Shown one piece after another: positions 4,287-22,263 of a DNA stretch of 64,000 nucleotides (position 1 is its first letter; each line of letters opens with the position of its first letter). The notes under the pieces were generated by a model, which ran no database searches, was not told the DNA's origin, and saw only the letters and a program-made list of their open reading frames with translations. The position numbers and the translations under genes were made by a program. Source of the DNA: Escherichia coli (GTDB lineage Bacteria > Pseudomonadota > Gammaproteobacteria > Enterobacterales > Enterobacteriaceae); assembly GCF_029227855.1 (NCBI RefSeq), contig NZ_CP074356.1; one strand, written 5' to 3'.

Positions 4287-6263
4287 ATGCAGCTTAATCA
4301 TATCGTTAAAAGTCTGCTAATAACGGGATTATTCACCACCAGTTCTTTACCTCTCCTCGCGGCGGAAGCTCCTAAAGACGCCACCGCAGCCACGCAACAA
4401 GCAAACAATTTACTCTACAACCAGTTGCCGTTTGCCGATAACACTGACTTTACTGATGCCCATAAAGGTTTTATTGCCCCTATCCCTCAAGACGTGATTA
4501 AGGGCGAACAAGGGAATGTTATCTGGGATCCACAACATTACGCTTTTATCAAAGAAGGCGATAAAGCCCCTGATACGGTGAATCCGAGTTTATGGCGTCA
4601 GGCGCAACTGATAAATATCAGCGGGTTATTCGAAGTAACTGAAGGTGTCTATCAGATTCGCAATCTCGATCTATCAAATATGACCATCATTGAAGGCAAA
4701 GAGGGTATTACCGTCGTTGATCCCCTTGTTTCAGCAGAAACAGCCAAAGTGGGTATGGATCTCTATTACAAAAATCGCGGCAAAAAACCGGTAGTGGCGG
4801 TTATCTATACACACAGTCATGTCGATCACTACGGTGGTGTTCGTGGCGTAATTGATGAAGCTGACGTTAAATCAGGCAAAGTTAAAATCTATGCGCCAGC
4901 CGGATTTTTGGAGGAAGCCGTTTCCGAAAACATCATGGCTGGCAATGTTATGAGCCGACGAGCCAGTTATATGTATGGCAACTTATTGAAACCTGATGTT
5001 AAAGGCCAGGTGGGGGCTGGACTGGGAACGACTACTTCAGCAGGAACAGTCACGTTGATTGCTCCTACTAACTACATCACCAAAACCGGACAAAAAGAAA
5101 CTATTGACGGGTTGACTTATGATTTCCTGATGGCGCCAGGTTCTGAAGCGCCTTCTGAAATGCTGTGGTTTATTGAAGAAAAGAAACTGATCGAAACCGC
5201 TGAAGATGTCACGCACACCCTTCATAACACCTATTCGCTGCGTGGGGCTAAAATTCGCCAACCGCTGCCGTGGTCAAAATATATTAATGAAGCTCTCAAT
5301 TTGTGGGGTGATAAAGCCGAGATTATTCTCGCTCAACATCACTGGCCAACCTGGGGCAACGATAACGTGGTCAAACTGCTTAAAAGCCAGCGTGATTTGT
5401 ATCGTTACATCAATGATCAAACTCTGCGCATGGCTAATCAAGGGATGACCCGTGATGAAATTGCCGCAAACTTTAAACTGCCCTCTTCACTGGCTAACAC
5501 CTGGGCGAATCGCGGCTATTACGGTTCGGTAAGTCATGACGTGAAAGCAACTTACGTGCTTTATCTCGGCTGGTTTGATGGTAACCCCGCGACGCTTGAT
5601 GAACTGCCGCCAGAAGAAGGCGCAAAAAAATTCGTCGAGTATATGGGCGGTGCTGATGCCATTTTACAGAAAGCCAAACAGGATTATGACCAGGGTAATT
5701 TCCGCTGGGTTGCCCAAGTTGTTAGTAAGGTGGTGTTTGCCGATCCAAACAACCAGGCAGCGAGAGATCTGGAAGCTGATGCGCTTGAGCAGTTAGGCTA
5801 TCAGGCTGAATCTGGGCCGTGGCGTAATTTCTATCTCACTGGTGCACAGGAATTGCGTAATGGCGTACAAAAATTACCAACACCAAATACTGCCAGCCCA
5901 GACACCGTGCGTGCGATGACGCCGGAGATGTTCTTTGATTATCTTGCCGTCCATATTAATGGTGAGAAAGCGGCAGATGCCAAAACCGTGTTGAATTTCG
6001 ATTTTGGTGAAGATGGCGGCACCTATAAAGTGGAGCTTGAAAATGGTGTTCTCAATCATACCGCTGGTGTAGAGGCTTCGGATGCTGATGCCACTATCAC
6101 TCTGTCTCGTGATGTATTGAACAAAATTGTACTGAAAGAAGAGACGCTGAAAGAAGCCACGGCCAAAGGAGATGTCAAAATTACTGGCAATGAGGAAAAA
6201 CTCAACGAGCTGTTAGGTTATATGGATAATTTTGAATTTTGGTTCAATATAGTGACACCATAA
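4287..6263 (+). CDS. Secreted YjcS/SdsA1-like alkyl (aryl) sulfatase, metallo-beta-lactamase fold
   Basis: 658 aa; N-terminal signal peptide (LLITGLFTTSSLPLLAAEA); THSHVDHYGG metal-binding motif; RBS GGAGA upstream. Accessory relative to the K-12 gene order as remembered. Confidence 0.8.
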   Translation: MQLNHIVKSLLITGLFTTSSLPLLAAEAPKDATAATQQANNLLYNQLPFADNTDFTDAHKGFIAPIPQDVIKGEQGNVIWDPQHYAFIKEGDKAPDTVNPSLWRQAQLINISGLFEVTEGVYQIRNLDLSNMTIIEGKEGITVVDPLVSAETAKVGMDLYYKNRGKKPVVAVIYTHSHVDHYGGVRGVIDEADVKSGKVKIYAPAGFLEEAVSENIMAGNVMSRRASYMYGNLLKPDVKGQVGAGLGTTTSAGTVTLIAPTNYITKTGQKETIDGLTYDFLMAPGSEAPSEMLWFIEEKKLIETAEDVTHTLHNTYSLRGAKIRQPLPWSKYINEALNLWGDKAEIILAQHHWPTWGNDNVVKLLKSQRDLYRYINDQTLRMANQGMTRDEIAANFKLPSSLANTWANRGYYGSVSHDVKATYVLYLGWFDGNPATLDELPPEEGAKKFVEYMGGADAILQKAKQDYDQGNFRWVAQVVSKVVFADPNNQAARDLEADALEQLGYQAESGPWRNFYLTGAQELRNGVQKLPTPNTASPDTVRAMTPEMFFDYLAVHINGEKAADAKTVLNFDFGEDGGTYKVELENGVLNHTAGVEASDADATITLSRDVLNKIVLKEETLKEATAKGDVKITGNEEKLNELLGYMDNFEFWFNIVTP

Positions 6264-6275
6264 ATTTACTGCATA

Positions 6276-6301
6276 CCGGGCAGGTATCCTGCCCTTTTTT
6301 G
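6276..6301 (+). terminator. Rho-independent terminator after sulfatase gene
   Basis: GC stem gggcagg-tat-cctgccc followed by T-run (tttttt). Confidence 0.7.
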
Positions 6302-6309
6302 GTTAAAAA

Positions 6310-7407
6310 ATGGCTGAACGAAGAAAAACTCATCACTCATGGAAAACCCGCCGCAATATGGTTATTCGCGGCATGACGATTAGTTTGCCATGGTTTGCTT
6401 TTATCAATGTCAGTTTTGCATTGATAATTTTGCTGCGCCGTGTTCTGTTTAATGACCTTACTCCACCCTGGTTAAATGAAAAAAGCCTTATACATTCTAT
6501 TGATATATCTGCAACGGGTATTCTGCTGATTTGCAGTGGTTTACTACTCATCCCTCGGCAAAAAACATTACCTATCCAGGTGCTATTAGTTGCCCTGAGC
6601 CTGCTATGGTCATGGTGTAGTTATCACTTTATTGCGTACTGGACGCTGCAGTTTGCTTATCCACTATGTGTATTATTAATGCTTAGTGGCGTTGTCGCAA
6701 TTTATTTCCATACCCCATCATTGCTCGCATTTGTCATTCCCTTATGGTTCACCACTCCAATAGCGAGTCTTATGCTTAATCAACAGATCAATATTCATTT
6801 TGCTGTTGTATGGTGTATTTTTTCACTGGCGCTATATGGTGGGCGACTCATTTTGTTACGTTGGTTTGAAGAAGCATGGGTACAAAACAGTTATAACAAC
6901 CAGTTAATTAATCGCCTTGATGCATTAGCACATCGTGCTCCTTTAACTGGGATAGCAAACCGACGTGCAATGAACAGTATCTTACACGACACGATGGATA
7001 ACGGCGGGTCATTTGCTCTTATTATGCTGGATGTCGATTTTTTTAAACGTTACAACGACACTTACGGGCATCCTGCTGGGGATCGTTGTCTAATACAAGT
7101 TGCCGACGCTCTACAGCGTTCAACTCGCCAGTCGGAGGATGTTGTTGTCCGTTATGGTGGCGAAGAGTTTGCCATCATACTTTTTAATGCAACATTGCCG
7201 GAAGCAGAGACGGTAGCAGCCAGAGTGAAGCAAGAACTTAAACTGGCAGCTATCCCACATCAGGCATCTGCTGTTAATGCATTCGTTACGGTTAGTCAGG
7301 GGATTACCTGTTCTGCTCCCGCAAAAACGGCTGAACAAATTATTTCAGATGCCGACGCTGCGTTATACCGGGCGAAAGAAAGTGGGCGAAATCGATGGGC
7401 TTTATAA
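6310..7407 (+). CDS. Membrane-anchored diguanylate cyclase (GGDEF domain, intact GGEEF active site)
   Basis: 365-aa ORF; N-terminal half has multiple hydrophobic helices, C-terminal half has the RYGGEEF motif. Exact start uncertain (alternative ATG at 6358). Confidence 0.75.
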   Translation: MAERRKTHHSWKTRRNMVIRGMTISLPWFAFINVSFALIILLRRVLFNDLTPPWLNEKSLIHSIDISATGILLICSGLLLIPRQKTLPIQVLLVALSLLWSWCSYHFIAYWTLQFAYPLCVLLMLSGVVAIYFHTPSLLAFVIPLWFTTPIASLMLNQQINIHFAVVWCIFSLALYGGRLILLRWFEEAWVQNSYNNQLINRLDALAHRAPLTGIANRRAMNSILHDTMDNGGSFALIMLDVDFFKRYNDTYGHPAGDRCLIQVADALQRSTRQSEDVVVRYGGEEFAIILFNATLPEAETVAARVKQELKLAAIPHQASAVNAFVTVSQGITCSAPAKTAEQIISDADAALYRAKESGRNRWAL

Positions 7408-8617: not shown

Positions 8618-9103
8618 TCATATTTTTAATATAGCCCCATGAGCTATAGGATCAAAACCTTCTAACCATGAGGTGTTTTTATCGAATAATGCACCTGTTA
8701 TATTTATATCGCCATATCTATCACATAATAAATTAGCGCCACATAAGTCAGCACCAGAAAAATTTGAATCTTTAACGTCTGCATTGCAAAAGGTTGAATT
8801 AGTTAATATAGCACCCTCAAAGTTTGCACCTATTGACCTTGAATTACTAAAGTCACTTCCAGTGAAATCTGAGTTATTAAGAATAGCGTTCATCAGAGCC
8901 GCATTGCGAAAGACAGCATTTCTAGTTGATGTATGTTGAATCATTACATTTCTTAAATGGGAATTTTCAAATTTCGCCCCATCAAGACAATAACCATTGA
9001 GGATGGCACGATGTAGATCCATCCCGCTAAAATCATATCCAGCAAGAGTGGTACTATCTATATCAAGAAATTTATTGGTTATTAAAAACGCGATTCTTAT
9101 CAT
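8618..9103 (-). CDS. Pentapeptide-repeat protein, predicted Rhs immunity protein (positional equivalent of K-12 ydcD)
   Basis: 161 aa; about 20 consecutive A(D/N)(L/F)xx-type pentapeptide repeats ([15 protein letters not shown] ... [15 protein letters not shown]); start codon overlaps the rhs stop in ATGA arrangement; AT-rich. Confidence 0.8.
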
Positions 9104-12100
9104 CTATTCCCCCAATCATCTAACTCCGGAAAAATTTGGCTAAACGGATATAGTGGTGCCGATAATGGACGCGTACCTGGCCGCTCAGGAGGAAGTTTAT
9201 CACATAACAGACCCGCAACCATCCTGTGATTACCATTAACAATCACATTCCCATCCATATCAACCGGTGGTGCTCCACTACCATCTTCCAGCATTTGTAC
9301 GTAGTGAGCTACTACGGGTACTGAGACTTTTTGTTGTACTGTCAACAAGGGACTGTTGGCCACAACCATCCTGATGTTTTCAGGTGTCGCAGGTAAACAT
9401 TTAGTCTTCTCTTGACTAAAGGTATCATCCCACAATTTTGTTAAACCCATCACTGCCTGTTGTCTGTATTTATCCATGGGGTCAGCAATCAACCAAGATG
9501 GACCTGACTGCTCTATGGAATCTTCTCCGGAGAGACCCAACGGATCTATCTTAGTAGTTGGATTCAATGGATACTGATACAGGTTCCATGCACCTCTTAG
9601 CCCAATGGGATCCTGGGTGATATACCGCCCCTGCAACGGGTCATAGTACCGGTTGCGGTTATAGTACAGCCCCGACTCCTCATCATACTGCTGCCCCGGC
9701 AGACGGTACGGCTGTTGCAGTTGCTGCGCGCTGGTTTCGCCCAGCAGGTTTCCCCACTCGTCATACTCCCCCTGCCACGCCGTTTCCCCTACCGGGCTGA
9801 TGAGCGCCTGCGGCAGCCCCCGGTGGTCGCAGTGGTAAAGATGAAGTGTCCTCTCCGGGATGTATTCCGCCTCCATCTGGTTTTTCATCTGTTCCGCCGT
9901 CAGCCCGCACTGCTGAAGCCATGCCTCACTCTCCGCACTCACCGCACCCGCGCGCAGTTCCCGCTCCAGCCTCCCCAGCATCACCGACAGCTCCGCCGGT
10001 AGCGTCACCCCCGTGTCCTCCTGCAACACCTCCGCCAGACTCCGGTGCCGCGCCTTCGCCTGTTCACCATTCTCTGTTTCGATTCTGATGAGCGGCGTGA
10101 AGCTCCCCGGCTGGTATACCGTCTGGATACGCGTGGTGCCGGTCTGTACCGTCGTCAGCCTGTCACCGTCCCACCCGTACCAGGTCTCCTCCGGTTTACG
10201 CGACAGCGACATCCACCCCGTCAGGTCACGCTCCCGCCGCCACACCCGTTTCCCCGTCCGGCGGCCCAGCGGGTCATAGAGGTAGCGGCTCTCCACCTGT
10301 GGTTCGCCGTGCTGTATCCGCGTGTAGAACACCAGGCGGTGCTGGCTGTCGTAATGGTAGTGGTGGGTCCGCTCGTCGTGCATCCGGATAACCCCTTCCG
10401 GGATACGATCCGTCTTCTCCGCCAGCCTGCCGTATTCATCGTGGCGGTAGACATAGTGCGCATCCTCCGCGATGCGGTTATCCGGCCACGCCGTGAAGGT
10501 GCTGTCCGGGTGCAGTTCCGGGTCCGGCAGCCGGTTTCCTGCCGGGTCCGTCGCATACGGGATATCGATATCCAGGTTCGCCGCCGTGGTGTGAACGCCC
10601 GTCAGTCTTCCCGTGTCGCTGTAACGGTACTTCCGGCTCTCCTGCGGGCCGCTGATGCGCACCAGTTGCCCGTTATCGTTCCACGTATACTCACGGTCAA
10701 GCTGCGGAAGGTTCAGGTGCCTGCTCCGGAGCTGCCCTGTGAGGGTGTACGCCATGGCCTGTTCGTACCCCGCTGTACTGCCCGCCCCGCCGAAGCTGCG
10801 GGCCGTCTCACGGTGCAGCCGGTCCCGCGTGTACTCGACCAGCGGCGTTCCGCCCAGCTTCATCCCCGCAAGATAACCGCTGCCATACGTCAGCCACTCC
10901 ACCGGCGGCAGACCGTCCGGCTCCTGACGGGTCGCCAGCCCCTGTTCGCTGTAGACGTGCCTCGTCTCATGCTCCCACAGCATCTCCCCCGTCTCCTGGT
11001 TCTCCACCGTCTGCCGTTCGCCCGTCAGGCGGCCTTTATCGTCATAGCCGTAGTGGACCGCCACACGGTGGCCTTCGCTCAGGTGGCTGATTTCTGTCAG
11101 CCAGCCGTGGTCGTCATACTGCCACTGCTCCGCCGGGTCGCCGTTCACCGTCCGGTGCGTGATGCGCCCGGCGTCATCGTAGTACCACTGCGTGACCTGC
11201 CCCTCATCCTCGCTGCGGATGAGCTGCCCTGTGGCGCTGTACCGGTAACGCTGTGTCCTGCCGTCAAAGCCGCGCTGCTCCGTCAGCCTGTCCACCGGGT
11301 CATACCGGAACGTGGACTGGCTGCCGTTCTCGTTGGTCAGCACGGTGATGCGCCCGGCGGCGTCATACTCCATGCTGCGCGTCAGTCCGCCCTGCGTGGT
11401 GCTGACGGCCTTTCCCCACGCATCATACTGTGTCTCACTCCGGCTGCCGTTCGGGGCAATGATAGCGGTGAGGTCGCCTGCGGCGCTGTACTCATAACGG
11501 GTTTCACGTCCCTGCGCATCCTTCTGACTGACCAGTTGACCACGCGGGTTATAACTGCTGTAAGTGCTGATGCCTTCCTCCCGGTGAACCGCCGTCCTCT
11601 GACCGTACCGGTCGTATTCATACCGCGTCGTGTACCCTGAACAGTCCGTAAATGCCTGAAGCTGACCGTACCGGTTTCGCGTTATTCTCCGCCTCACCCC
11701 GGTTCCGTCTTCCACCGCACAGGGCAGGCCACTGCGGGAAGAATCATAAAACCAGCGCGTAATGTTACCGTTGCGCGAGACCTCTTCCGCCAGCCTGCCC
11801 TGACGGTCATATTTCCGGCTGCGGCGCAGCCCGTCCGGGTACGTCACTGACGTCAGTTGCAACTGGTTGTTGTAACCATACCGTACCGTCCTGCCGTCCG
11901 GCAGTATCACTGAAGTCAGCTTTCCCGACGCCATATGCAGCCGGTACTCCGTCCGCCGTCCCGCCGCATCCGTCTGCGCCTTCAGCCTCCCCGCCTCATC
12001 ATACTCGCTGCGGGTGATGCTCCCGTCCCCATGCTCCTTCTTCACCACCCGCTTCAGGCCGCCCTCGCCCTCCGTGTACAGCACCTCCCGCCGGTTCAGG

Positions 12101-13311
12101 CTGTCCGTGATGGTCACGCGGTCCTGCCCGTACTCAAAGCGGTAGTCCAGCCCCTCCGGGTTGACCTGCTCCGTCACCCGACCGGTATCATCATACCGGT
12201 AGCGGCTCTCCGGCCTCCCCGCATAATGGTGCGCCACCATCCGCCCGGCGTGCTCCGCATCATAAGTAAACCCGCGCACCTGCGTCCCGCTGCGGTCATA
12301 CACCGCCCGCAGTTCTCCGCTGGCCGTGTACGTGTAGCGCGCCAGCGGCGCAGTCGGCAGTTCATCCAGGTATGCCAGGTCGTGTGTCAGCCATACCGCC
12401 TCCAGCCGGATACCGTTATCGGCACCGTACTCTGTACCGGTGGGCAGCGTGTCGGGGAAAACCTGAGAAGAGGAAACAGAACGGGGACTGGCCGGAGAAG
12501 ATAAAGAAGAGGCGCGCTGTTTACGGAAGGCTTTCGCCCGCTGCGCCTGTGTGGTCAGCGCCAGATGAAAACGGCGGCCCGCGCCGTCCGTCACCCCCGT
12601 CACCGCGCCCGCCGCTTCCCCCTCTGCCGCCCGGTGGAAGGCCAGCGTCCGCCCGAAGCTGTCCACCACGCCCGTCAGCACCCGGTATGCGGGCGGCTCC
12701 GGCGGCAGCACCTCGTCCGCCTCCGGCACCCGCTCCGGCCAGCCGAGTATCCACCACGGCCCCTGAAGGCTGTTTGTCGCCAGGTACACATGCGGGCTTA
12801 AGCGGAGACTCTCCGGCAGCACCTGCCAGAGCGCGCTTAGCGGCTGCGAACTGTGCTGCTCCGCCACCCCGCCCCTTGCCAGCCAGAACGACTCGCTGCG
12901 GCTGTAGCTTATCTCGCCGGGAAACAGCGGCTCAAAGTGAATGCTCCTGCCGCCACTGTCGTTGAGTATCAGTTCCCGCTCATGAACCTGTAAGCGGATA
13001 TCGAAGGGCGCTTTCCAGCCGGGACCAAACACCCCCACCGGCGCGGGTGTTCTGGTCCGGTAGCTGCTGTAGGCGCGGGAAAGAATAAACGGCAACGGGC
13101 CGGGCAGCGCAAGATCCGTCTCGCCCGGCAGCACCTTCGCACCCAGTAGCGGGTTCACCGGGTTACCCTTCTGCTCCTCCACCGGGCTGTTGGGACACAC
13201 CGAGCAGGCCACTCCCGTCGGCGCACCTATCAGCACCCCCGCTGAACCCTGCACAATATCCAGTCCCTTGCGGGTCATATCGCCCTGTCGCGCCGCCGGT
13301 TTTCCGCTCAT
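9100..13311 (-). CDS. Rhs polymorphic toxin, full length (PAAR-like N-terminus, YD-repeat core, variable C-terminal tip with ParB-like motif)
   Basis: 1403 aa; N-terminus [11 protein letters not shown]; long GC-rich YD-repeat core; core-end DPxGL motif (..DPIGL..KIDPLGL) followed by an AT-rich roughly 143-aa tip (about 9100..9531). Confidence 0.9.
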
Positions 13312-13731: not shown

Positions 13732-14097
13732 TCATGAAGGCCCGCAGCCAGCAAGGATTAGAGAAAGGTATTCATTCTTACGTCCTGCCCGCTTTTGCTT
13801 GCGTTTAATACCCGCTTTAAAGCTATTCTCTGCGGTCAGTAAATTCATCGCGATATGTCGACAAACTGCCAGATTTTCTCCCGCTTCTCCACGAACAATC
13901 TGGCATTCATCTTCCCGCATCCCCATATCAAGTCGCCAGTGCAGTTGATTTTCTACCGACCAGTGTGCTCGTGTTGCTTCCAGGAGTTCTTTCGCCGTAA
14001 GCGTCACCGAACTTATGTAGTAGCGAAGAATACACTTCTCTGATTTCACCGCTGTTTCTCCTTCCAGGGCAAGATTACGAAAGCCCGCTCCCCGCAA
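13732..14097 (-). pseudogene. H-repeat (ISAs1-family) transposase C-terminal fragment, diverged copy
   Basis: 121-aa ORF whose C-terminal 95 aa align to the C-terminus of the intact H-rpt protein (HWxVENxLHWRLD motif). Confidence 0.65.
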
Positions 14098-15211
14098 GGA
14101 CTGACGCCAGATAGTTTCTGTCCATGGCTGCTTTTCGCATCTTACGTCTTAACCCTGCCTTGAATACCTTATCATTCGTTAAAATATTAATAGCGATGTG
14201 CCGTATCCCTGAAAATAATTCTGCGGCGTTTCCTCTTCCTATTTTGCAGTCGTCTTCATTCATTACCACGTCCAGACGCCAGTGCAGCTTATTCTCCACG
14301 TGCCAGTGGTTTCGGATTGCTGTGGCGAACTTCTCTGCGGTTAAATCAGCAGAACTGATATAATATCTGACCGTCATTTCTGGCTCTTTCTTTTGTTCTG
14401 CTATTATTGACCGAAAGGAGACTGCCACGCATAATTTCTTCAGTCCTTTCCATTCAAACATTAAATCAATAAGTTCATCAGGGACATCACAAACAATGTG
14501 AAGACGGATTTCTTCTCTGCCGTGACTCTTTTCACTAATTGCGTAACTGTCATGCTCTGGATTATTTAATTCTTTCAGTGGGAATTTTTCCTCAAAGGCT
14601 TTATTTAGCCGCCCCTGGTTTCCTTTTACAGCGAATAAATAATCACCTCCCTGTTTTTGTATCTTCTCTGCAATATCTTTCTGGCAACCCATCGCATCAG
14701 TTGTGATGATTTTTCCTTTAATATCCAGCATGTTAAGAAGTTCAGGGATAGCTGTAATTTCATTTGATTTCTCATCCGTCCTGATCTGTCCGATGACCAG
14801 ACTGTGCATTGTTGAGAACGCACTAATGACATGAATCGCTCCCTTGCGGCGACTCTTGTCATAAGGATGCCGGAGTGTTTTTCCATCAATTGCGATGACG
14901 TCTTTATCAGCTGAAGAATGGCAGTCACGCATCCAGTTAATAAAGCACTCGTGAAATTTTGCAGGACTGATACAGGATACAACTCTGGCAATGGTATCGT
15001 GAACAGGAATACCATTTTCAAAATCACCATATTGCTTCAAAAAATCGAGATGTGTTTCCCCAAAATCCTCTATATCTTCCCAGCATTCTGCACCAAAAAT
15101 AACGGCACAAATAGTCAACAGTAGAATATCCGACAATTTATGTTCCACTTTCCAGGCTTGTCTGTAATCGGGGATAATAGAAATATGTTCCATCAATTTT
15201 TTAAGTTCCAT
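14075..15211 (-). CDS. H-repeat-associated protein / ISAs1-family transposase (intact)
   Basis: 378 aa, recognised as E. coli H-rpt (YdcC/YhhI-like) protein. Confidence 0.9.
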
Positions 15212-15487: not shown

Positions 15488-15525
15488 AAGATTAAAGTTG
15501 TGATGATAATCACAACTTTAATGAT
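15488..15525 (-). terminator. Hairpin downstream of Rhs copy-2 immunity gene (putative terminator)
   Basis: 14-bp perfect stem attaaagttgtgat/atcacaactttaat with a 4-nt loop; a short U-run follows on the minus strand. Confidence 0.45.
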
Positions 15526-15557: not shown

Positions 15558-15932
15558 TTACTCTAATGGTTTTATTAATTGTAAATTTTTAAATGTCATG
15601 CTTAATAAGCCATCAGAAAAATAAAGAAAAAATTTATATATCCTTTTGTTTTTTAATTTCTTTATATACCCATTACTTATATTACCTGACTTGTGATTAT
15701 CGATTAACTCAGCAGAATCCATAGCGAACACTAAATCATCTACATCAGAAAATTCAACTATCATTTTTTCCCTAATGTTCTCATTTTTATAAATGTCAAT
15801 AAATAACGTCATGTTAAAATGAGATTCTTTGAATGTCGTTTTTACTTCTAACAAAACCCCATCATGCCAGTCAATTGAACTCACAATGTCAAAATCGCTC
15901 ATTATATAATCTCCATTATCCGTTTTAATCAT
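15558..15932 (-). CDS. Predicted immunity protein for Rhs copy-2 toxin (hypothetical, AT-rich)
   Basis: Start chosen at MIKTDNGDY so that ATG overlaps the toxin stop (ATGA coupling); very AT-rich; no recognisable domain. Longer alternative start at 15965. Confidence 0.6.
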
Positions 15933-18900
15933 GGAGTAACAACGTTTGCAGGTATTGACCACCAAAGAGGTGGTGCAAGTGAAGGTATAAATCGAATCAC
16001 TCTATATATAACATACCCTGCGCCAATTGTAGCACCAGTTGCAAGAGCCGCATCAGTAGTTGATAGCCCAGAGGTTTTGCATGACAGATCTTTACTTGGT
16101 TCTGGCTCGAAACCATATTTTTTTGCACATTTCTTAATGCTATTTGGTGCTGATGAGTAATCCTCACCATGGGACATACCTCCAAATTCCCCCATTACAC
16201 CACTCCCATTTTTACACTCCCAATGCAAATGTCTTCCGTCACCAACAGCATCGCCATCTATTCGGATTCGACAACCTTTACCACAGTCCTTCCATTTTCC
16301 TGAAGTATGAGCTAATCCCAATGGATCAATCCATTGCACAGGATTGTTCATAACATAACTGTACGGGTTTATTCCCCCCGCCAGCCCTATCGGGTCCTGG
16401 ATGATATACCGCCCCTGCAACGGATCGTAGTACCGGTGACGGTTATAATACAGCCCCGACTCCTCATCGTGTTGCTGCCCTGGCAGACGGTACGGCTGGT
16501 GCAGGTGATGCGGGTTTTCCTCATTCAGCAGGTTCCCCACTCATCATACTCCCCGCTCCACGCCGTATTGCCGTCTTCGCTGATGAGCGCCAGCGGCAGG
16601 CCCCGGTGGTCGCAGTGGTAAAGATGAACTTTTCGCGCCGGTGTGTATTCCGGCTCCACCTGTCTGGCCAGTTGCTCCACCGTCAGCCCGCACTGCGCAA
16701 GCCACGCCCGGCTTTCGTTACTCACGCGGTCTGCCCGGATTTCTCCCTCCAGCCTGTCCAGCAGCCGCACCAGTTCAGCCGGGAACACCACACCGTGCCC
16801 GTCCTCACTCCCTTCCGACTGTAACTTCTCCGCCAGGCTGCGGCGCTGCGCTTTCTCCCGTTCGCCGTTCTCTGTTTCGATGCGGATGAGTGGCGTGAAG
16901 CTTCCCGGCTCGTATACCGTCTGGATACGTGTGGTGTCAGTCTGCACCGTCGTCAGCCTGTCGCCGTCCCACCCGTACCATGTCTCCTCCGGTTTACGCG
17001 ACAGCGACATCCACCCCGTCAGGTCACGCTCCCGCCGCCATACCCGTTTCGCCATTCGCCGTCCCAGCGGGTCGTAGAGGTAGCGGCTCTCGACCAGTGG
17101 CTCGCCATGCTGTATCCGCGTGTAGAACACCAGGCGGTGCTGGCTGTCGTAGTGGTAGTGGTGGGTCCGCTCGTCGTCCGTCCGTATCACACCCGCCGGG
17201 ATGCGGTCCGTCTTCTCTGTCAGCCTGCCGTATTCATCGTGGCGGTAGACATAGTGCGCATCCTCCGCGATGCGGTTATCCGGCCACGCCGTGAGTGTAC
17301 TGTCCGGGTGCAGCTCCGGGTCCGGCAGCCGGTTGCCCGCCGGGTCCGTGGCATACGGGATGCGGATGTCCAGGTCCGGTGCGAGGGTGCGTACACTCGC
17401 CAGCCTGCCCGTGGCACTGTAGCCGTATTCCCGCGTCTGTCGCGGGCCGCTGATGCGCACAAGGTCGCCGTTGTCATTCCACCCGTAGTCACGGTCATAC
17501 ACCAGGCTGTTCAGGTGCTGGCTCTGTAACTGGCCTGCAGGGGTGTATGTGCTGGTCAGTTCGTATGCGGCATTACTGCCTGCCATGCTGCCAAAGCTGC
17601 GCACCGTCTCCCGGTGCAGCCTGTCCCGCGTATACTCGACCCGCGGCGTCCCGCCCAGCTTCATTCCCGCCAGGTAACCGCTGCCATAGGTCAGCCACTC
17701 CACCGGCGGCAGGCTGTCCGGCGTGACGCGGTTTGCCAGCCCCTGTTCGTTGTATGCCTGTTTCGTCTCATGCTGCCACAGCAGTTCCCCCGTCTCCGGG
17801 TTCTTCACCGTCTGGCGCTCACTGGTCAGACGGCCTTTATCGTCATAGCCGTAGTGGACCGCCACACGGTGGCCTTCACTGGTATGGCTGAGGGTGGTTA
17901 ACCACCCGTGCTCATCATACTGCCACTGCTCTGCCGGGTCGCCGTTCACCGTCCGGTGCGTGATGCGGTCTGCTTCATCGTAGTACCACTGCGTGACCTG
18001 CCCCTCATCCTCGCTGCGGATGAGCTGCCCTGTGGCGCTGTACCGGTAACGCTGTGTCCTGCCATCAAAGCCGCGCTGCTCCGTCAGGCGGTCCAGCACA
18101 TCGTAGGTAAATTCACTCCGGCTGCCGTTCTCGTTGGTCAGCGTGGTGACACGTCCTGCCGCGTCATACTCCATACTGCGCGTCAGCCCGCCCTGCGTGG
18201 TGCTGACCGCTTTTCCCCACGCATCGTACTGTGTCTCGCTCCGGTTGCCGTCCGGGGTGATAACGGCAGTCAGGTCGCCTGCGGCGTTGTACTCATACTG
18301 CGTTTCACGGCCCTGTGCGTCTTTCACCGAGGTTAACCGGCCACGGTTGTCATAGCGGCGGTAACGGCTGATACCTTCCTCGCGGTGGACCGCCGTCATC
18401 TGACCAAAGCGGTCGTATTCATAGCGGGTCTGGTAGCCCGAGCAGTCGGTGAACGCCAGCAACTGACCGTAGCGGCTCCAGGTCATCTGCCGGGTGCTGC
18501 CCGTCGCATCCATTGTCGTCGCCGGTAACTCACTGTACGCGTCATCGTAGCGGTAGCGTACTGTCTCCCCGCTGCGCGATGTCTCCGTTACCAGCCTGCC
18601 CGGTTCATCATATGCCCGGCGGCTCTCCAGCCCGTCCGGGGACACCACTGCCGTCACCTGGTTCCCGTCGTTATAGTAAAATTTCGTCTCCCGCCCGTCC
18701 GGTGTGGTGATGTCCGTGATATCGCCTGACACCACATTCAGACCGTACTCTGTCCGCCGTCCCGCCGCGTCCGTCTGCGCCGTAAGCCTTCCTGCCGCGT
18801 CATACCCACTGTGCGTGGCGCTGCCGTCCGCCAGTTCTTTTTTCACCACCCGCCTCAGCCCGGCCCCGCCTTCTGTATGCAGCACCTCACGCCGGTTCAG

Positions 18901-20088
18901 GCTGTCCGTGACGGTGATGCGGTCCTGCTCATACTGGTAGCGGTAACTCAGGCCTGCCGGGTTCAGCTGCTCCACCACCCGCCCCGCATCGTCGTAGCGG
19001 TAGCGCATCTCCGGCCTTCCCGCGTAACGGTGCGCCACCATCCGGCCCGGGTGCTGCGCGTCATACGTGAAAGCGCGCACCTGCGTATTGCTGCGGTCAT
19101 ATACCGCCAGCAGTTCACCGGCTTCCGTATACGTGTACCGCGCCAGTGGCGCACCGGGCAGATTCTCCGGGTATGCCGGGTCATGCATCAGCCACACCGC
19201 TGAAAGACGGATGCCCCTGTCGGGGCCGTATTCCGTACCGGGCAGTGTGTCGGGGAACGCTGAGGCTGAGAGAGGGCGGGAACGGTCAGAAGAAGATAGC
19301 GAAGAGGTGCGGGCCTCTTCCGCCCGCTGCGCCTGCGTGGTCAGCACCAGACGGAACTTCCGCCCGGCACCGTCCGTCACGCCGGTGATTTCCCCGGCCA
19401 GGTCACCGGCGGCCTCACGCCGGTACGTCAGCGTCTGCCCGAAGCGGTCCGCCAGCCCGGTAAGCACCCGGTACGGCGGCAGCGGCGCTGGCAGTACGTC
19501 CTCAGTGCCCGGCACCCGCTCTGACCACCCCAGTATCCACCACGGTCCCTGTGCGCTGTTGGTCGCCAGGTAAAGATGCGGGCTTAACCGGATATCCGGC
19601 GGCAGCGACGGCCACAGCCGTGCCAGCGTGTGGCCGTCCGGCTGCGCTGCCTTACCACCGCGAACCAGCCACATTGACTCGCTGCGGCTGTACACCGCCT
19701 CCCCCGGCAGCAGCGGCTCAAAGTGAATGCTCCGCCCGCCGTTGTCGTTGAGTATCAGTCCGTCATCACGTATCTGTAAGCGGATATCAGAAGGCGCTTT
19801 CCAGCCGGGGCCAAAAATCCCCACCGGCGCAGGCGTCTTCGTCCGGTAGCTGCTGTAGGTGCGGGAGAGAATGAACGGCAGCGGGCCGGGCAGCGCAAGG
19901 TCCGTCTCGCCGGGCAGCACCTTCGCCCCCAGCAGCGGATTTACCGGGTTGCCCGAAGTCATCCCGCCCGGACACACCGAGCACGCCACGCCGGTGGACG
20001 CGCCAATTCTTACACCTGCCGAACCCTGGACAATGGGACCGCCATACTGAGTCATATCTCCCTGACGCGCCGCTGGTTTTCCGCTCAT
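15929..20088 (-). pseudogene. Rhs polymorphic toxin copy 2, interrupted by a 1-nt frameshift between core (16525..20088) and DPxGL/toxin tip (15929..16540)
   Basis: 1187-aa core ORF ends ..EYDEWGTC while a separate 203-aa ORF carries the core end ([38 protein letters not shown]) and a Cys/His-rich tip. Rhs copy 1 has tttcccca where copy 2 has ttcccca (around 16531..16539). Confidence 0.8.
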
Positions 20089-20154: not shown

Positions 20155-22263
20155 TCAGTACTCTCTCATATCCGGCGTATCCTGCTTTTCATCAGGGGTC
20201 TTCGGTGGGGATTTCGAGGCTGCACAGTTCCAGTTAATCAACAGTGAGTCACCATTAACCTGCTCCTTACCCTGCAAATGAATTTTTGTGCCGTTGAGAA
20301 AAATTTGTCCGTCCTTAGTCAGCACCAGCCTTGCCTTACCACAGCAGAGTTCCAGATGCTCACCGGCGGAGTAAATCGCGGTCTGCCCGGTATCATCCTT
20401 TTTCGTTTTACCAACGGTGAAGGTAACGTTATTTCCGACTTTGACGTCATAACCCAGCCCGACCATCAACGACTTATGCAAACCGATCTGCGAGGACTGC
20501 ATCAGGGCCACCGAGGTGTTCATAATGCCACCTACCGTCGTCTGATACGCCACGCCCACGGTCAGCGCACGAACAAGTCCAATCGTTTCCACCTGAACAG
20601 AGCCCACTTTAATGATCTGGTTACTGCCCACCGTCTCTATCTGGTTAACGCCCACCGTCTGTATCTGATTGTTGGTAACCGCAATCACCTGATTGTTGCC
20701 GATGGTCTCAGCATGGCTGTTTATCACATCCGTGGTTCGGTTATTCAGCACCTCAGTGTTCATGTTCTTCTGCGCGTGGATGTAGACCTGTTCTTTCCCT
20801 GTCGCATCGTCAAACTTCAGTTCATTAAACCCGCTGCCCTTATAGGTTTTCGAACGAATGGTCATCTGCGTCTTTGTTCCCGGCAGGCTGCCGGGGGTGC
20901 GGTTTTCCTGGTGGTAGGTACGCCCCATAATAATCGGCTGGTCCGGATCGCCGTTGAGGAAGTCCACAATGACTTCCTGACCCACACGCGGTATCGCCAG
21001 GTTGCCAAAGCCGGTGCCTGCCCACGCCTGTGCCACACGGATCCAGCATGAACTGTCCTGGTTTGACGGGTTATAGCGGTCCCAGTTAAATTTCACCCGC
21101 ACGCGGCCATGTTCATCACAGAAGATTTCTTCTCCTGCCGGTCCCGTCACGACGGCGCTCTGCGGGCCGTCCACCAGCGGTTTCAGCAACGGCTGTGGCC
21201 GCCATGTTCTGTCTGCCGGTATTACCGCAAAGTGGTTATTCAGCGTGGTACCTGAACCCCTGCGTCCCGGCACCGCCTGCGGCTGCTCGCCGTGCAGTTC
21301 ACTTGCCACCACCTGCCATTCCCGGTTCAGGTTCGCCTGCGGATGCCCCGTCAGCGCAATTCGCCGTCCCGGCCATATCTCCGGCGAACGGCTTGTTCCG
21401 CGCGCCACTTCTGCGTTGTTTCGCCAGCCATCCATCTGCCAGCAGGCAAAGTTCTGCCCGTGGGCACCCTTGAAACGTCCGGGGTAGTCATACACTTCAT
21501 ACTGTGTGCGCTGGTAATCCTGGTGCTGGCCTTCCTGATCAAAACGCCCTGCCCAGCCGGGTCGTTTAAAGGTGTAGTCTTTGGTCACCACGGAAGATGG
21601 GCGGATTTGTGCGCTGTAGCGGAACTGGCTGATGCATAGGGTGCTCACCTCGGTACGGGTGTTCGGATTCCAGGGGATCTCAAAGGACTCCGGCAGATAA
21701 CGCACGGTGTCGCACAGGACCAGGCTCTGGTCGGTACTTTTTTGCGCGTGCTCCTCATAAAAGAAGATGCCTTCCTCCGCCGCCATCCGGCACAGGAAAT
21801 CGTAATCGGTTTCGCCGTACTGGACACAAAACTCACGGGAAGGATGCGGCTCGCTGAACAGCGGACTCCACTCGGTCACCCCGTTTTCTTTCAGGATCGT
21901 CGCGAGTATGCTTTCGATGTCCTCATTCTGGAAGATACGGAAGTTCTGGCGCAGCCCTGTGCGCCACAGCGGTGGGCACACCTTCATGCTGTACAGCATC
22001 TGGTTTTTGTCGTTCTCCCCCAGTTCAAACCAGGTCACCACACCTTTCACCCGGCGCTGTACGTCATCGCCCTGCCATACCGTCAGGTAGGCCATTTTGT
22101 CCAGCACCTGCGCAAATTCAAGGGAGAGAAACTGCTGGCTGACCAGAGAGAGATCGAGGGAAAAGAGCGAAGAGAGTGACTGGTTCAGATGAAAGGAGAC
22201 CACCGCAAACGCGTCCGGTGGCAGGCCGTCCACTTCCAGCGTGAAACGTAATCCGGTTGACAT
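20155..22263 (-). CDS. vgrG: Type VI secretion spike protein VgrG
   Basis: Start taken at MSTGLRFTLEVDG with GGAGG RBS (702 aa); recognised VgrG gp27/gp5-like sequence including repetitive beta-helix segment (VGVNQIETVGSNQIIKVGSVQVETIG); 66 nt upstream of the Rhs copy-2 start. Confidence 0.9.
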   Translation of the reverse strand: MSTGLRFTLEVDGLPPDAFAVVSFHLNQSLSSLFSLDLSLVSQQFLSLEFAQVLDKMAYLTVWQGDDVQRRVKGVVTWFELGENDKNQMLYSMKVCPPLWRTGLRQNFRIFQNEDIESILATILKENGVTEWSPLFSEPHPSREFCVQYGETDYDFLCRMAAEEGIFFYEEHAQKSTDQSLVLCDTVRYLPESFEIPWNPNTRTEVSTLCISQFRYSAQIRPSSVVTKDYTFKRPGWAGRFDQEGQHQDYQRTQYEVYDYPGRFKGAHGQNFACWQMDGWRNNAEVARGTSRSPEIWPGRRIALTGHPQANLNREWQVVASELHGEQPQAVPGRRGSGTTLNNHFAVIPADRTWRPQPLLKPLVDGPQSAVVTGPAGEEIFCDEHGRVRVKFNWDRYNPSNQDSSCWIRVAQAWAGTGFGNLAIPRVGQEVIVDFLNGDPDQPIIMGRTYHQENRTPGSLPGTKTQMTIRSKTYKGSGFNELKFDDATGKEQVYIHAQKNMNTEVLNNRTTDVINSHAETIGNNQVIAVTNNQIQTVGVNQIETVGSNQIIKVGSVQVETIGLVRALTVGVAYQTTVGGIMNTSVALMQSSQIGLHKSLMVGLGYDVKVGNNVTFTVGKTKKDDTGQTAIYSAGEHLELCCGKARLVLTKDGQIFLNGTKIHLQGKEQVNGDSLLINWNCAASKSPPKTPDEKQDTPDMREY

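Follow-up and report, generated by a model that had tools for sequence, protein, structure and literature searches.

The closest systems with solved structures are two T6SS Rhs effectors, Rhs1/Tre23 of Photorhabdus laumondii (PMC8636562) and RhsA of P. protegens (PMC8765631). The plug at their C-terminal side carries two DPxGL motifs and is followed by an encapsulated C-terminal toxin; the beta-cocoon of YD-repeats and the linkage to vgrG are further features which they share with the rhs gene described here, and their N-terminal PAAR-type region has a putative counterpart in it. The C-terminal plug is an aspartyl-protease domain with cleavage after the second DPLGL, and mutation of the cleavage site abolished toxicity (PMC8636562). 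In the 64,000 nucleotides of Escherichia coli DNA that we analysed (the window), the reading frame of the cocoon does not continue into plug and toxin. The toxin is a predicted membrane/pore-forming protein of the Tox-WTIP type, whereas Rhs1/Tre23 and RhsA carry an ADP-ribosyltransferase or a nuclease. Unlike the systems with solved structures, this rhs gene showed no prePAAR/TM segment and no Eag chaperone was seen.

A second kind of relative are the orphan rhs-CT/immunity modules (PMC2935791, PMC7043789), which the locus resembles in having a tip ORF with a short core piece, no delivery domain on it and an immunity gene as partner. However, the tip in the window is not displaced; it directly continues a full-length core and is set off from it by a 1-nt frame break. 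Where the same tip occurs as a true orphan, it is preceded by a main rhs of 1406 aa and an immunity gene of 132 aa; orphan tip fragments often carry frameshifts or stops.

Intact vgrG-linked Rhs proteins with the Tox-WTIP tip are encoded in strains SCU-102 (WP_172636120.1) and WP4-S18-ESBL-07 (WP_182920509.1). They agree with the window in chromosomal site (yncG/yncH ... ydcC-yddH), tip and 114-aa immunity gene, and the tip region is 99.7% identical. In contrast to the window they are in frame, with GAATGGGGCAACC at the site; they have another core mosaic, and the pseudogene there is vgrG. The E. coli K-12 rhsE pseudogene at the ydcC locus presumably shares the neighbourhood (ydcC/H-repeat, yddH, nhoA, narZYWV) and would be an instance of rhs decay there too, though we take it to be a truncated remnant and not a single-base frameshift of a full-length gene.

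The closest match is JNEC-KY178 (NZ_AP045174.1), in which the identical gene lacks the same base. Its locus AC0J0T_RS12470 bears the PGAP/RefSeq label 'RHS element core protein, frameshifted', so the rhs frameshift is already known from public annotation of this sister strain. The 18.5 kb around it are 99.99% identical and have vgrG, the immunity gene, ISAs1 and the second rhs in common with the window; JNEC-KY178 is a close relative. On the other hand, both rhs genes are broken in JNEC-KY178, copy 1 by a 1-nt deletion of its own, and narW is intact, while the window shows the reverse pattern.

Division of rhs copy 2 into two reading frames

The features at the break and its comparator are:

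20155-22263, minus strand: vgrG, intact, 702 aa, T6SS spike protein, directly upstream of the broken rhs
15929-20088, minus strand: whole rhs gene, copy 2, vgrG-linked, 4160 nt, no multiple of 3
16525-20088, minus strand: upstream ORF, 1187 aa, with N-terminal PAARQGD segment, DUF6531 and YD/RHS-repeat shell
16533-16534, minus strand: frameshift site, coding AA within TGGGG-AA-CCTG; in-frame alleles have AAA or CAA
15929-16540, minus strand: downstream ORF, 203 aa, GTG start; residues 2-76 are the Rhs-associated core domain, 77-203 the toxin
16313-16396, minus strand: two DPxGL motifs with 18 residues between them (DPIGL, 16382-16396; DPLGL, 16313-16327)
15932-16312, minus strand: toxin domain, 127 aa, the last 40 residues matching Pfam Tox-WTIP (E=6e-13)
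15558-15902, minus strand: presumed cognate immunity gene, intact, 114 aa; the same DNA in JNEC-KY178 encodes WP_001279013.1
9100-13311, minus strand: rhs copy 1, intact, 1403 aa, with a different tip; DNA about 78% identical to copy 2

Copy 1, which reads GGGGAAACC at the equivalent site, served as comparator. Its pairwise alignment with copy 2 showed a lone 1-nt gap (TGGGGAAACCTG versus TGGGG-AACCTG): the coding strand at the lesion changes from GGGGAAACC to GGGGAACC, one base fewer, and the plus strand at 16533-16534 is TT where TTT is expected of a gene in frame. The original prediction had quoted a string from each copy and had read one T fewer in copy 2. Both strings are present, at plus-strand positions 9742 (copy 1) and 16526 (copy 2), and the count of Ts was right. 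The 1187-aa and 203-aa ORFs into which it had split an otherwise intact gene were found at their positions, with one missing base uncoupling the toxin tip from the delivery part. The single ORF of roughly 1390 aa that it expected on restoring the base came out at 1386 aa without a further stop when one A was re-inserted, and the immunity ORF is retained intact as it had said. Its description of the run as a homopolymer is correct against comparators with AAA, which has the form GGGGAAACC in the closest core relative CFSAN018748, in ybbP-locus paralogues and in copy 1, but incorrect against the same-tip alleles, which read GGGGCAACC. Neither does the 203-aa ORF begin mid-core, since its start lies 74 model positions before the core end.

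The upstream ORF ends in EYDEWGTC* at a premature TGA (16525-16527) and is without C-terminal plug/protease and without toxin. It scored 2551.9 bits over residues 1-1186 against RHS_core NF041261 (cut-off 2000 bits), and its shell holds six YD_repeat_2x stretches and many Pfam RHS_repeat matches. The NCBIfam model RHS_core has 1261 positions; positions 1-1189 fall on the 1187-aa ORF and positions 1188-1261 on residues 2-76 of the 203-aa ORF (E=9e-35). The two ORFs are thus adjoining pieces of one gene. Compared along its whole length with the intact Rhs of SCU-102 (1384 aa), the restored 1386-aa protein is 94.7% identical. The plug domain (TIGR03696, 96.1 bits; DPIGL and DPLGL) sits on the 203-aa ORF in a frame other than that of the shell and becomes continuous with it only after re-insertion of one base. 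By homology, the DPxGL pair is a putative aspartyl autoprotease/cleavage signature; both motifs lie out of frame with the shell. The break parts the beta-cocoon shell from the C-terminal plug/protease and the toxin.

At its N-terminus copy 2 has a literal PAARQGD and DUF6531; the Pfam PAAR_motif match is weak (E=0.26). The gene for VgrG (TIGR03361, 626 bits) lies 66 nt upstream. At the other end, the variable tip directly follows a PxxxxDPxGL-type motif and is itself followed, 27 nt downstream, by the small putative immunity ORF, for which a family search gave no match. The Tox-WTIP part contains RVIR (RxxR), WWSIP (Wx[ST]IP) and a hydrophobic segment.

Occurrence of the deletion in other genomes

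An exact match to the 75-nt segment with the deletion occurred in one of the 2340 complete genomes that hold the segment, JNEC-KY178, and the best 29 next matches of the 2340 all span 76 nt. Full-length, single-piece alleles with the same tip numbered about 45 among the matches listed; JNEC-KY178 was the only one with a frame-breaking length, and nearly all remaining same-tip alleles among the matches listed were one base longer. CFSAN018748 has an identical VgrG protein and across 16385-16629 differs from the window by the deletion alone. Neither the 1187-aa nor the 203-aa ORF has its exact product on record in an index of 153 billion genes. Thousands of assemblies contain the tip counted from its first ATG (140 aa), but they have it as a true orphan module; it cannot discriminate and was rejected as a marker of the frameshift allele. 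A metagenome scan yielded no contig with the deletion allele and four with the in-frame AAA allele, a denominator too small to mean much. Disruption as such is frequent here: vgrG or rhs is a pseudogene at the locus in SCU-102, WP4-S18-ESBL-07 and JNE070796, and of 10 non-redundant loci, 4 have a disrupted main rhs.

Over the 64 kb, the window and JNEC-KY178 differ by eight SNPs, six of them transversions, one 2-nt indel and one 1-nt indel, and derived states occur in both. A private indel is present in each assembly, CCAGGC[AC]TGG in narW of the window and GGGGCGGGG to G8 in copy 1 of JNEC-KY178. The presence of the same deletion in two non-identical assemblies implies that it predates their split, if it is genuine. 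At the same time, a private indel in each makes residual indel errors plausible. The putative deletion lineage rests on these two assemblies, which may not be independent in method.

Origin of the missing base

We consider it probable that a recent, lineage-specific deletion inactivated a T6SS Rhs effector gene whose immunity gene was kept. One A would have been lost from a run of three (GGA AAC to GGA AC) near the rhs 3' end, making a pseudogene of the vgrG-linked effector gene. From the normal start a 1187-aa protein would then be made, consisting of the N-terminal part and the YD-repeat shell and lacking the 127-aa Tox-WTIP toxin as well as the plug/aspartyl-protease region with its two DPxGL motifs, with immunity ORF and vgrG intact. 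Judging by the structures and biochemistry of homologous Rhs proteins, such a shell could presumably no longer be closed, loaded or autoprocessed, and we infer a loss of toxin delivery from the copy 2 gene. The cell would stay immune to the same toxin, which other E. coli strains commonly carry. We further infer that the deletion arose, by replication slippage or as an ordinary deletion, on a CFSAN018748-type core (AAA). It would have followed or accompanied the recombination that brought in the Tox-WTIP tip, with the crossover in the 150 conserved nt before the tip. A gene conversion by copy 1 was considered and is not needed, because the CFSAN018748-type core already has GAG...AAA.

If genuine, the deletion is a further case of rapid decay and turnover of vgrG-rhs effectors in E. 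coli, in a lineage that lost delivery of the widespread Tox-WTIP toxin and keeps the immunity. The correct call is one frameshifted rhs pseudogene and not two genes, as RefSeq has it for the sister strain. The finding is an ordinary one and matters little beyond annotation.

A genuine mutation was among the readings offered by the original prediction, and it is favoured by the comparison with related strains that was also proposed there: the deletion is common to a second, non-identical assembly and absent from all other alleles inspected, which carry the extra base. Sequencing error in a homopolymer was offered as well. Here the private indels of both assemblies speak for such errors, yet the reading is less favoured than mutation. 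A slippery site is disfavoured (see below), and the suggested fate of an orphaned module does not apply, the affected gene being the main vgrG-linked rhs and not already an orphan.

An artefact of assembly or basecalling is doubtful but has to be taken seriously. The strain would then possess an in-frame gene (GGGGAAACC or GGGGCAACC), and two related assemblies of similar technology would share one consensus error. The site lies at the boundary of a G4 and an A3 run, and the private indels in narW and copy 1 are gene-breaking and stand in error-prone contexts of the long-read type. In repeated genes such as rhs, short-read polishing works poorly and residual indel errors preferentially persist. 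Moreover, the deletion is in no third independent assembly or metagenome contig, and a share of six transversions in eight SNPs is unusual for natural polymorphism. Against this, the same error would be needed twice, in assemblies whose remaining indels are not shared. Both read the 18-nt context GAGTGGGGAAACCTGCTG, which is identical in copy 1, correctly with AAA there, an internal control that speaks against a basecalling error driven by context. No other complete genome with the 75-nt context gave an exact match to the deletion, and the extra base is present in all 29 inspected, among them several of the JNE series from Japan. Reads mis-mapped from paralogues would carry this base, and their effect would be to hide a deletion, not to produce one. 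Should it prove an artefact, it would be a reminder to confirm single-base indels of repeated rhs genes at the level of reads when an assembly is built from long reads.

It is improbable that the base was lost in, or carried along by, the C-terminal displacement that joined the CFSAN018748-type core to the Tox-WTIP tip. The site does lie at the margin of the putative crossover interval: on the side below 16535 the window is almost the same as the same-tip alleles (one difference in about 950 nt), from 16540 upward it follows the CFSAN018748-type core, and the two positions at which it departs from the same-tip alleles, 16535 and 16540, fall together in a stretch of 6 nt. However, the haplotype of G at 16540 with AAA is intact in the core lineage, so that one plain deletion explains everything, and loss of a base is not normal for homologous recombination. 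The common orphan form of the tip has core homology from about 16480 only, hence the site was not inherited from an orphan; descent from the decayed core remnant of an orphan was rejected on the same ground, its homology beginning about 55 nt downstream of the site.

Finally, that the split is tolerated and a useful product still made is highly improbable, whether by a rare, low-level -1 slip at G GGA, where a shift of tRNA-Gly from GGA onto GGG would give W-G-N-L-L and with it exactly the ancestral, wild-type Rhs, or by termination-reinitiation at the GTG at 16540, whose 203-aa plug and toxin, held in check inside the cell by the immunity protein, would form a toxin-antitoxin-like addiction module. 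Salmonella Rhs C-terminal toxins are indeed expressed internally and act as type II TA modules (PMC7043789), and the GTG has GGAG 8 nt upstream and the TGA stop 13 nt downstream. Yet GGAG and GTG are forced by the G-E-Y-D-E-W-G codons conserved in all Rhs genes, and a simple sigma-70 scan for an internal promoter of tip or immunity gene did no better than shuffles (4 sites versus 3.7 expected). As to slippage, the zero frame G GGA ACC is no X XXY YYZ heptamer; ACC cannot re-pair as AAC, leaving only the P-site codon, and the ancestral G GGA AAC was destroyed by the deletion itself. For the 93 nt downstream the folding energy was -21.5 kcal/mol, no better than that of shuffles (mean -25.1, z=+1.01), so that no stimulatory structure is seen, and a shift in one of 2340 genomes is no conserved recoding signal. 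Thus a programmed frameshift was rejected on heptamer, structure and conservation. The A2 run (A3 in frame) beside G4 is well below the length at which transcriptional slippage or phase variation would be expected, tracts of this kind typically having a run of 7 or more.

Surroundings of the broken gene

Around the two rhs units we located the following features:

15491-15522, minus strand: terminator-like hairpin 3' of the immunity ORF
14075-15211, minus strand: ISAs1-family (H-repeat, ydcC-like) transposase gene between the two rhs units
13732-14097: ISAs1 fragment after the transposase gene
8618-9103: pentapeptide-repeat immunity gene of copy 1

A Pfam search of the copy-1 tip gave no match. 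A second full-length rhs lies 2.6 kb downstream of the broken rhs.

A single-base frameshift in rhs copy 2

The window covers the E. coli chromosome from narW/narI/yddE/nhoA/yddH through yncG/ansP to hrpA. The features around the vgrG-linked rhs gene (copy 2) were, in minus-strand gene order:

20155..22263, minus strand: vgrG, intact, 702 aa (TIGR03361, 626 bits)
15929..20088, minus strand: rhs copy 2, 4160 nt, after vgrG
15558..15902, minus strand: putative immunity gene, an intact 114-aa ORF after copy 2
14075..15211, minus strand: ISAs1/H-repeat transposase gene between the two rhs units
13732-14097, minus strand: 121-aa ORF, an ISAs1 C-terminal fragment that shares 23 nt with the end of the intact transposase gene
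9100..13311, minus strand: rhs copy 1, intact, 1403 aa, the second rhs of the window
8618..9103, minus strand: putative pentapeptide-repeat immunity gene of copy 1, after copy 1
past the copy-1 immunity gene, minus strand: another ISAs1 fragment

A terminator-like hairpin follows the 114-aa immunity ORF.

The original prediction held that one missing base splits an otherwise intact copy 2 and cuts its toxin tip off from the core. Both strings quoted for the two copies were located, at 9742 and 16526, and the ORF table agreed with a long ORF at 16525..20088 (1187 aa) and a short ORF at 15929..16540 (203 aa, GTG start). Alignment of copy 1 with copy 2 showed a single 1-nt gap, TGGGGAAACCTG versus TGGGG-AACCTG, where the plus strand reads TT (16533-16534). 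The long ORF ends in ...EYDEWG-T-C-stop with TGA at 16525-16527. It covers positions 1-1189 of the NCBIfam model RHS_core (1261 positions), while residues 2-76 of the short ORF match positions 1188-1261 (E=9e-35). Because the match is split at about 1188, the two ORFs are adjoining pieces of one gene. The break lies 74 model positions before the core end and not mid-core as had been described. Re-insertion of one A yielded a single ORF of 1386 aa with no further stop (roughly 1390 aa had been expected), and from end to end the restored protein shared 94.7% identity with the intact Rhs (1384 aa) of SCU-102, a strain with the same tip. Thus the gap, the split RHS_core match and the restored ORF confirmed a single-base frameshift that separates the copy-2 core from its tip.

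The short ORF contains the Rhs-associated core domain (TIGR03696, 96 bits) and two motifs:

16382-16396, minus strand: DPIGL
16313-16327, minus strand: DPLGL, 18 residues from DPIGL

The tip of 127 aa comes after DPLGL. In the structure of Photorhabdus Rhs1 the C-terminal region is both the plug closing the beta-barrel and an aspartyl-protease domain, the cleavage site follows the second DPLGL, and mutation of the DPLGL aspartate abolishes cleavage and toxicity (PMC8636562). By homology, the 1187-aa product would be a shell without plug, protease or cargo. A match to Pfam Tox-WTIP (E=6e-13) covers the final 40 residues of the tip. This part includes RVIR, WWSIP and a hydrophobic segment, in keeping with a family described as toxins predicted to form pores, with two membrane helices and the motifs RxxR and Wx[ST]IP (PMC3482391). 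As predicted, the tip was uncoupled while the putative immunity gene was kept: the frameshift disables the main Rhs effector gene, the one linked to vgrG, and the immunity gene stays intact. Copy 2 is an unremarkable pseudogene within a well-known family, and the lesion is already annotated, the gene being labelled 'RHS element core protein, frameshifted' by RefSeq/PGAP in the sister genome JNEC-KY178.

Mutation, artefact or recoding

A 75-nt query across the frameshift site matched 2340 of 5426 complete E. coli genomes, exactly so only in JNEC-KY178. The next-best 29 matches listed were all 76 nt long, and these alleles therefore have the extra base. A 1041-nt query (site, tip and immunity gene) found the module in 397 genomes; among the listed full-length single-piece matches only JNEC-KY178 had a frame-breaking length and nearly all others were longer by one base. 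The comparison with related strains that had been proposed as a check thus found the deletion in JNEC-KY178 and in none of the other alleles inspected.

JNEC-KY178 is a close relative, but its sequence is not identical. Over 64 kb it differs by eight substitutions (6355, 9791, 28197, 28809, 39245, 47825, 50864 and 62065), one 2-nt and one 1-nt indel. In narW (plus strand) the window is missing AC at 268 (within 266-270, CCAGGC[AC]TGG), which shifts the frame after ...ERDDTRQA; AC is present in JNEC-KY178 and four other genomes, and its loss marks a private pseudogene or else an assembly error beside a CCWGG site. At 12871 in copy 1 the window has GGGGCGGGG and JNEC-KY178 G8, which frameshifts copy 1 there and is so annotated, while copy 1 of the window is intact. 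Therefore the sister strain has neither rhs gene intact. Outgroup comparison placed derived states on either side, so the copy-2 deletion predates the split of the two genomes or is an artefact of both.

We consider a genuine mutation likely, most probably a recent and lineage-specific one, and an artefact rather unlikely. An artefact would agree with the private gene-breaking indel in each assembly, at a sequence where long-read errors typically arise, with the repetitive nature of rhs genes, where polishing is weakest, and with transversions making up six of the eight substitutions. Three of the six transversions are G:C/T:A; such a spectrum is odd for polymorphism arising naturally in E. 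coli, and errors or a mutator history may lie behind it. Exact-product look-ups and a scan of metagenome contigs, of which only 4 held the in-frame allele, likewise revealed no third carrier of the deletion. On the other hand, two assemblies that are not identical both have the deletion, and neither has the indel private to the other. Both also read AAA in copy 1, where the 18-nt context is identical, and no other genome with the local context has the exact deletion allele. Furthermore, genes at this locus frequently decay. The same-tip strains SCU-102, WP4-S18-ESBL-07 and JNE070796 have pseudogenes of vgrG and/or rhs, and 4 of 10 non-redundant loci (a sample biased towards diversity) have a disrupted main rhs. 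Several strains with this rhs intact instead carry an upstream vgrG pseudogene with an internal stop or frameshift (L002 544-2652, L004 339-2446, L005 331-2438), which suggests that selection on the vgrG-rhs unit as a whole is often relaxed.

The 203-aa ORF may, with low probability, be expressed internally as a toxin-antitoxin-like module, as are Rhs tips in Salmonella (PMC7043789), yet a promoter scan of the tip/immunity region gave nothing above chance. Recoding across the break, the slippery site of the original prediction, is disfavoured. If the P-site tRNA slipped from GGA to GGG, W-G-N-L-L would be restored exactly, and for reinitiation there is a GTG that overlaps the long-ORF end and has GGAG 8 nt before it; however, this geometry follows of necessity from the G-E-Y-D-E-W-G codons, which every rhs gene conserves. 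No X XXY YYZ heptamer is present in the zero frame G GGA ACC, the deletion having destroyed the ancestral G GGA AAC; the downstream 93 nt fold no better than shuffles (z=+1.0), and the shift is limited to one lineage. For phase variation or transcriptional slippage the A2/A3 run is too short.

Ancestral state of the site

The same-tip alleles read GAA TGG GGC AAC at the site; their differences from the window cluster at 16540 and 16535, with almost none downstream. CFSAN018748, retrieved via its identical 702-aa VgrG, is the closest core relative and has a different tip. It reads GAG TGG GGA AAC, as do the ybbP-locus paralogues, and the missing A is its sole difference from the window over 16385-16629. 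The description of the lesion as a short homopolymer reduced by one base therefore holds for the core lineage with its AAA, but not for the same-tip alleles with GGC AAC. The simplest history, as read from these alleles, is that a CFSAN018748-type core would have gained the Tox-WTIP tip by recombination within the conserved 16385-16535 and would then have lost one A from AAA. Elsewhere in the core, a 15-nt in-frame indel at 17642-17656 distinguishes the window from CFSAN018748.

The Tox-WTIP tip occurs very commonly as a true orphan, preceded by a main rhs of 1406 aa and an immunity gene of 132 aa and frequently trailed by ISAs1 and another full-length rhs (1413 aa). A 140-aa tip (from MNNPVQ..., 15932-16351) is identical in thousands of assemblies, where it is an orphan module (6001-6423 in comparison loci L013-L022). 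Core homology of the orphan begins only near 16480, and thus inheritance of the lesion from an orphan was ruled out.

Layout of the two rhs units

The segment 7481-22263 looks like two common layouts fused at ISAs1 copies. One is yncG-yncH-vgrG-rhs-imm-ISAs1-yddH (e.g. SCU-102), the other ISAs1'-rhs(copy-1 type)-pentapeptide immunity-ISAs1 fragment-GGDEF-sulfatase-pptA-yddH (e.g. GMF054, CFSAN061763). JNEC-KY178 was alone among the inspected genomes in combining the two. The overlap of the ISAs1 fragment with the transposase gene (13732-14097 and 14075-15211) is the apparent junction. A Pfam search with the copy-1 tip (143 aa, 9100-9530) gave no match; the copy-1 tip/immunity pair was found in 143 complete genomes. 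The copy-1 immunity protein has weak matches to Qnr/MfpA-type DNA mimics.
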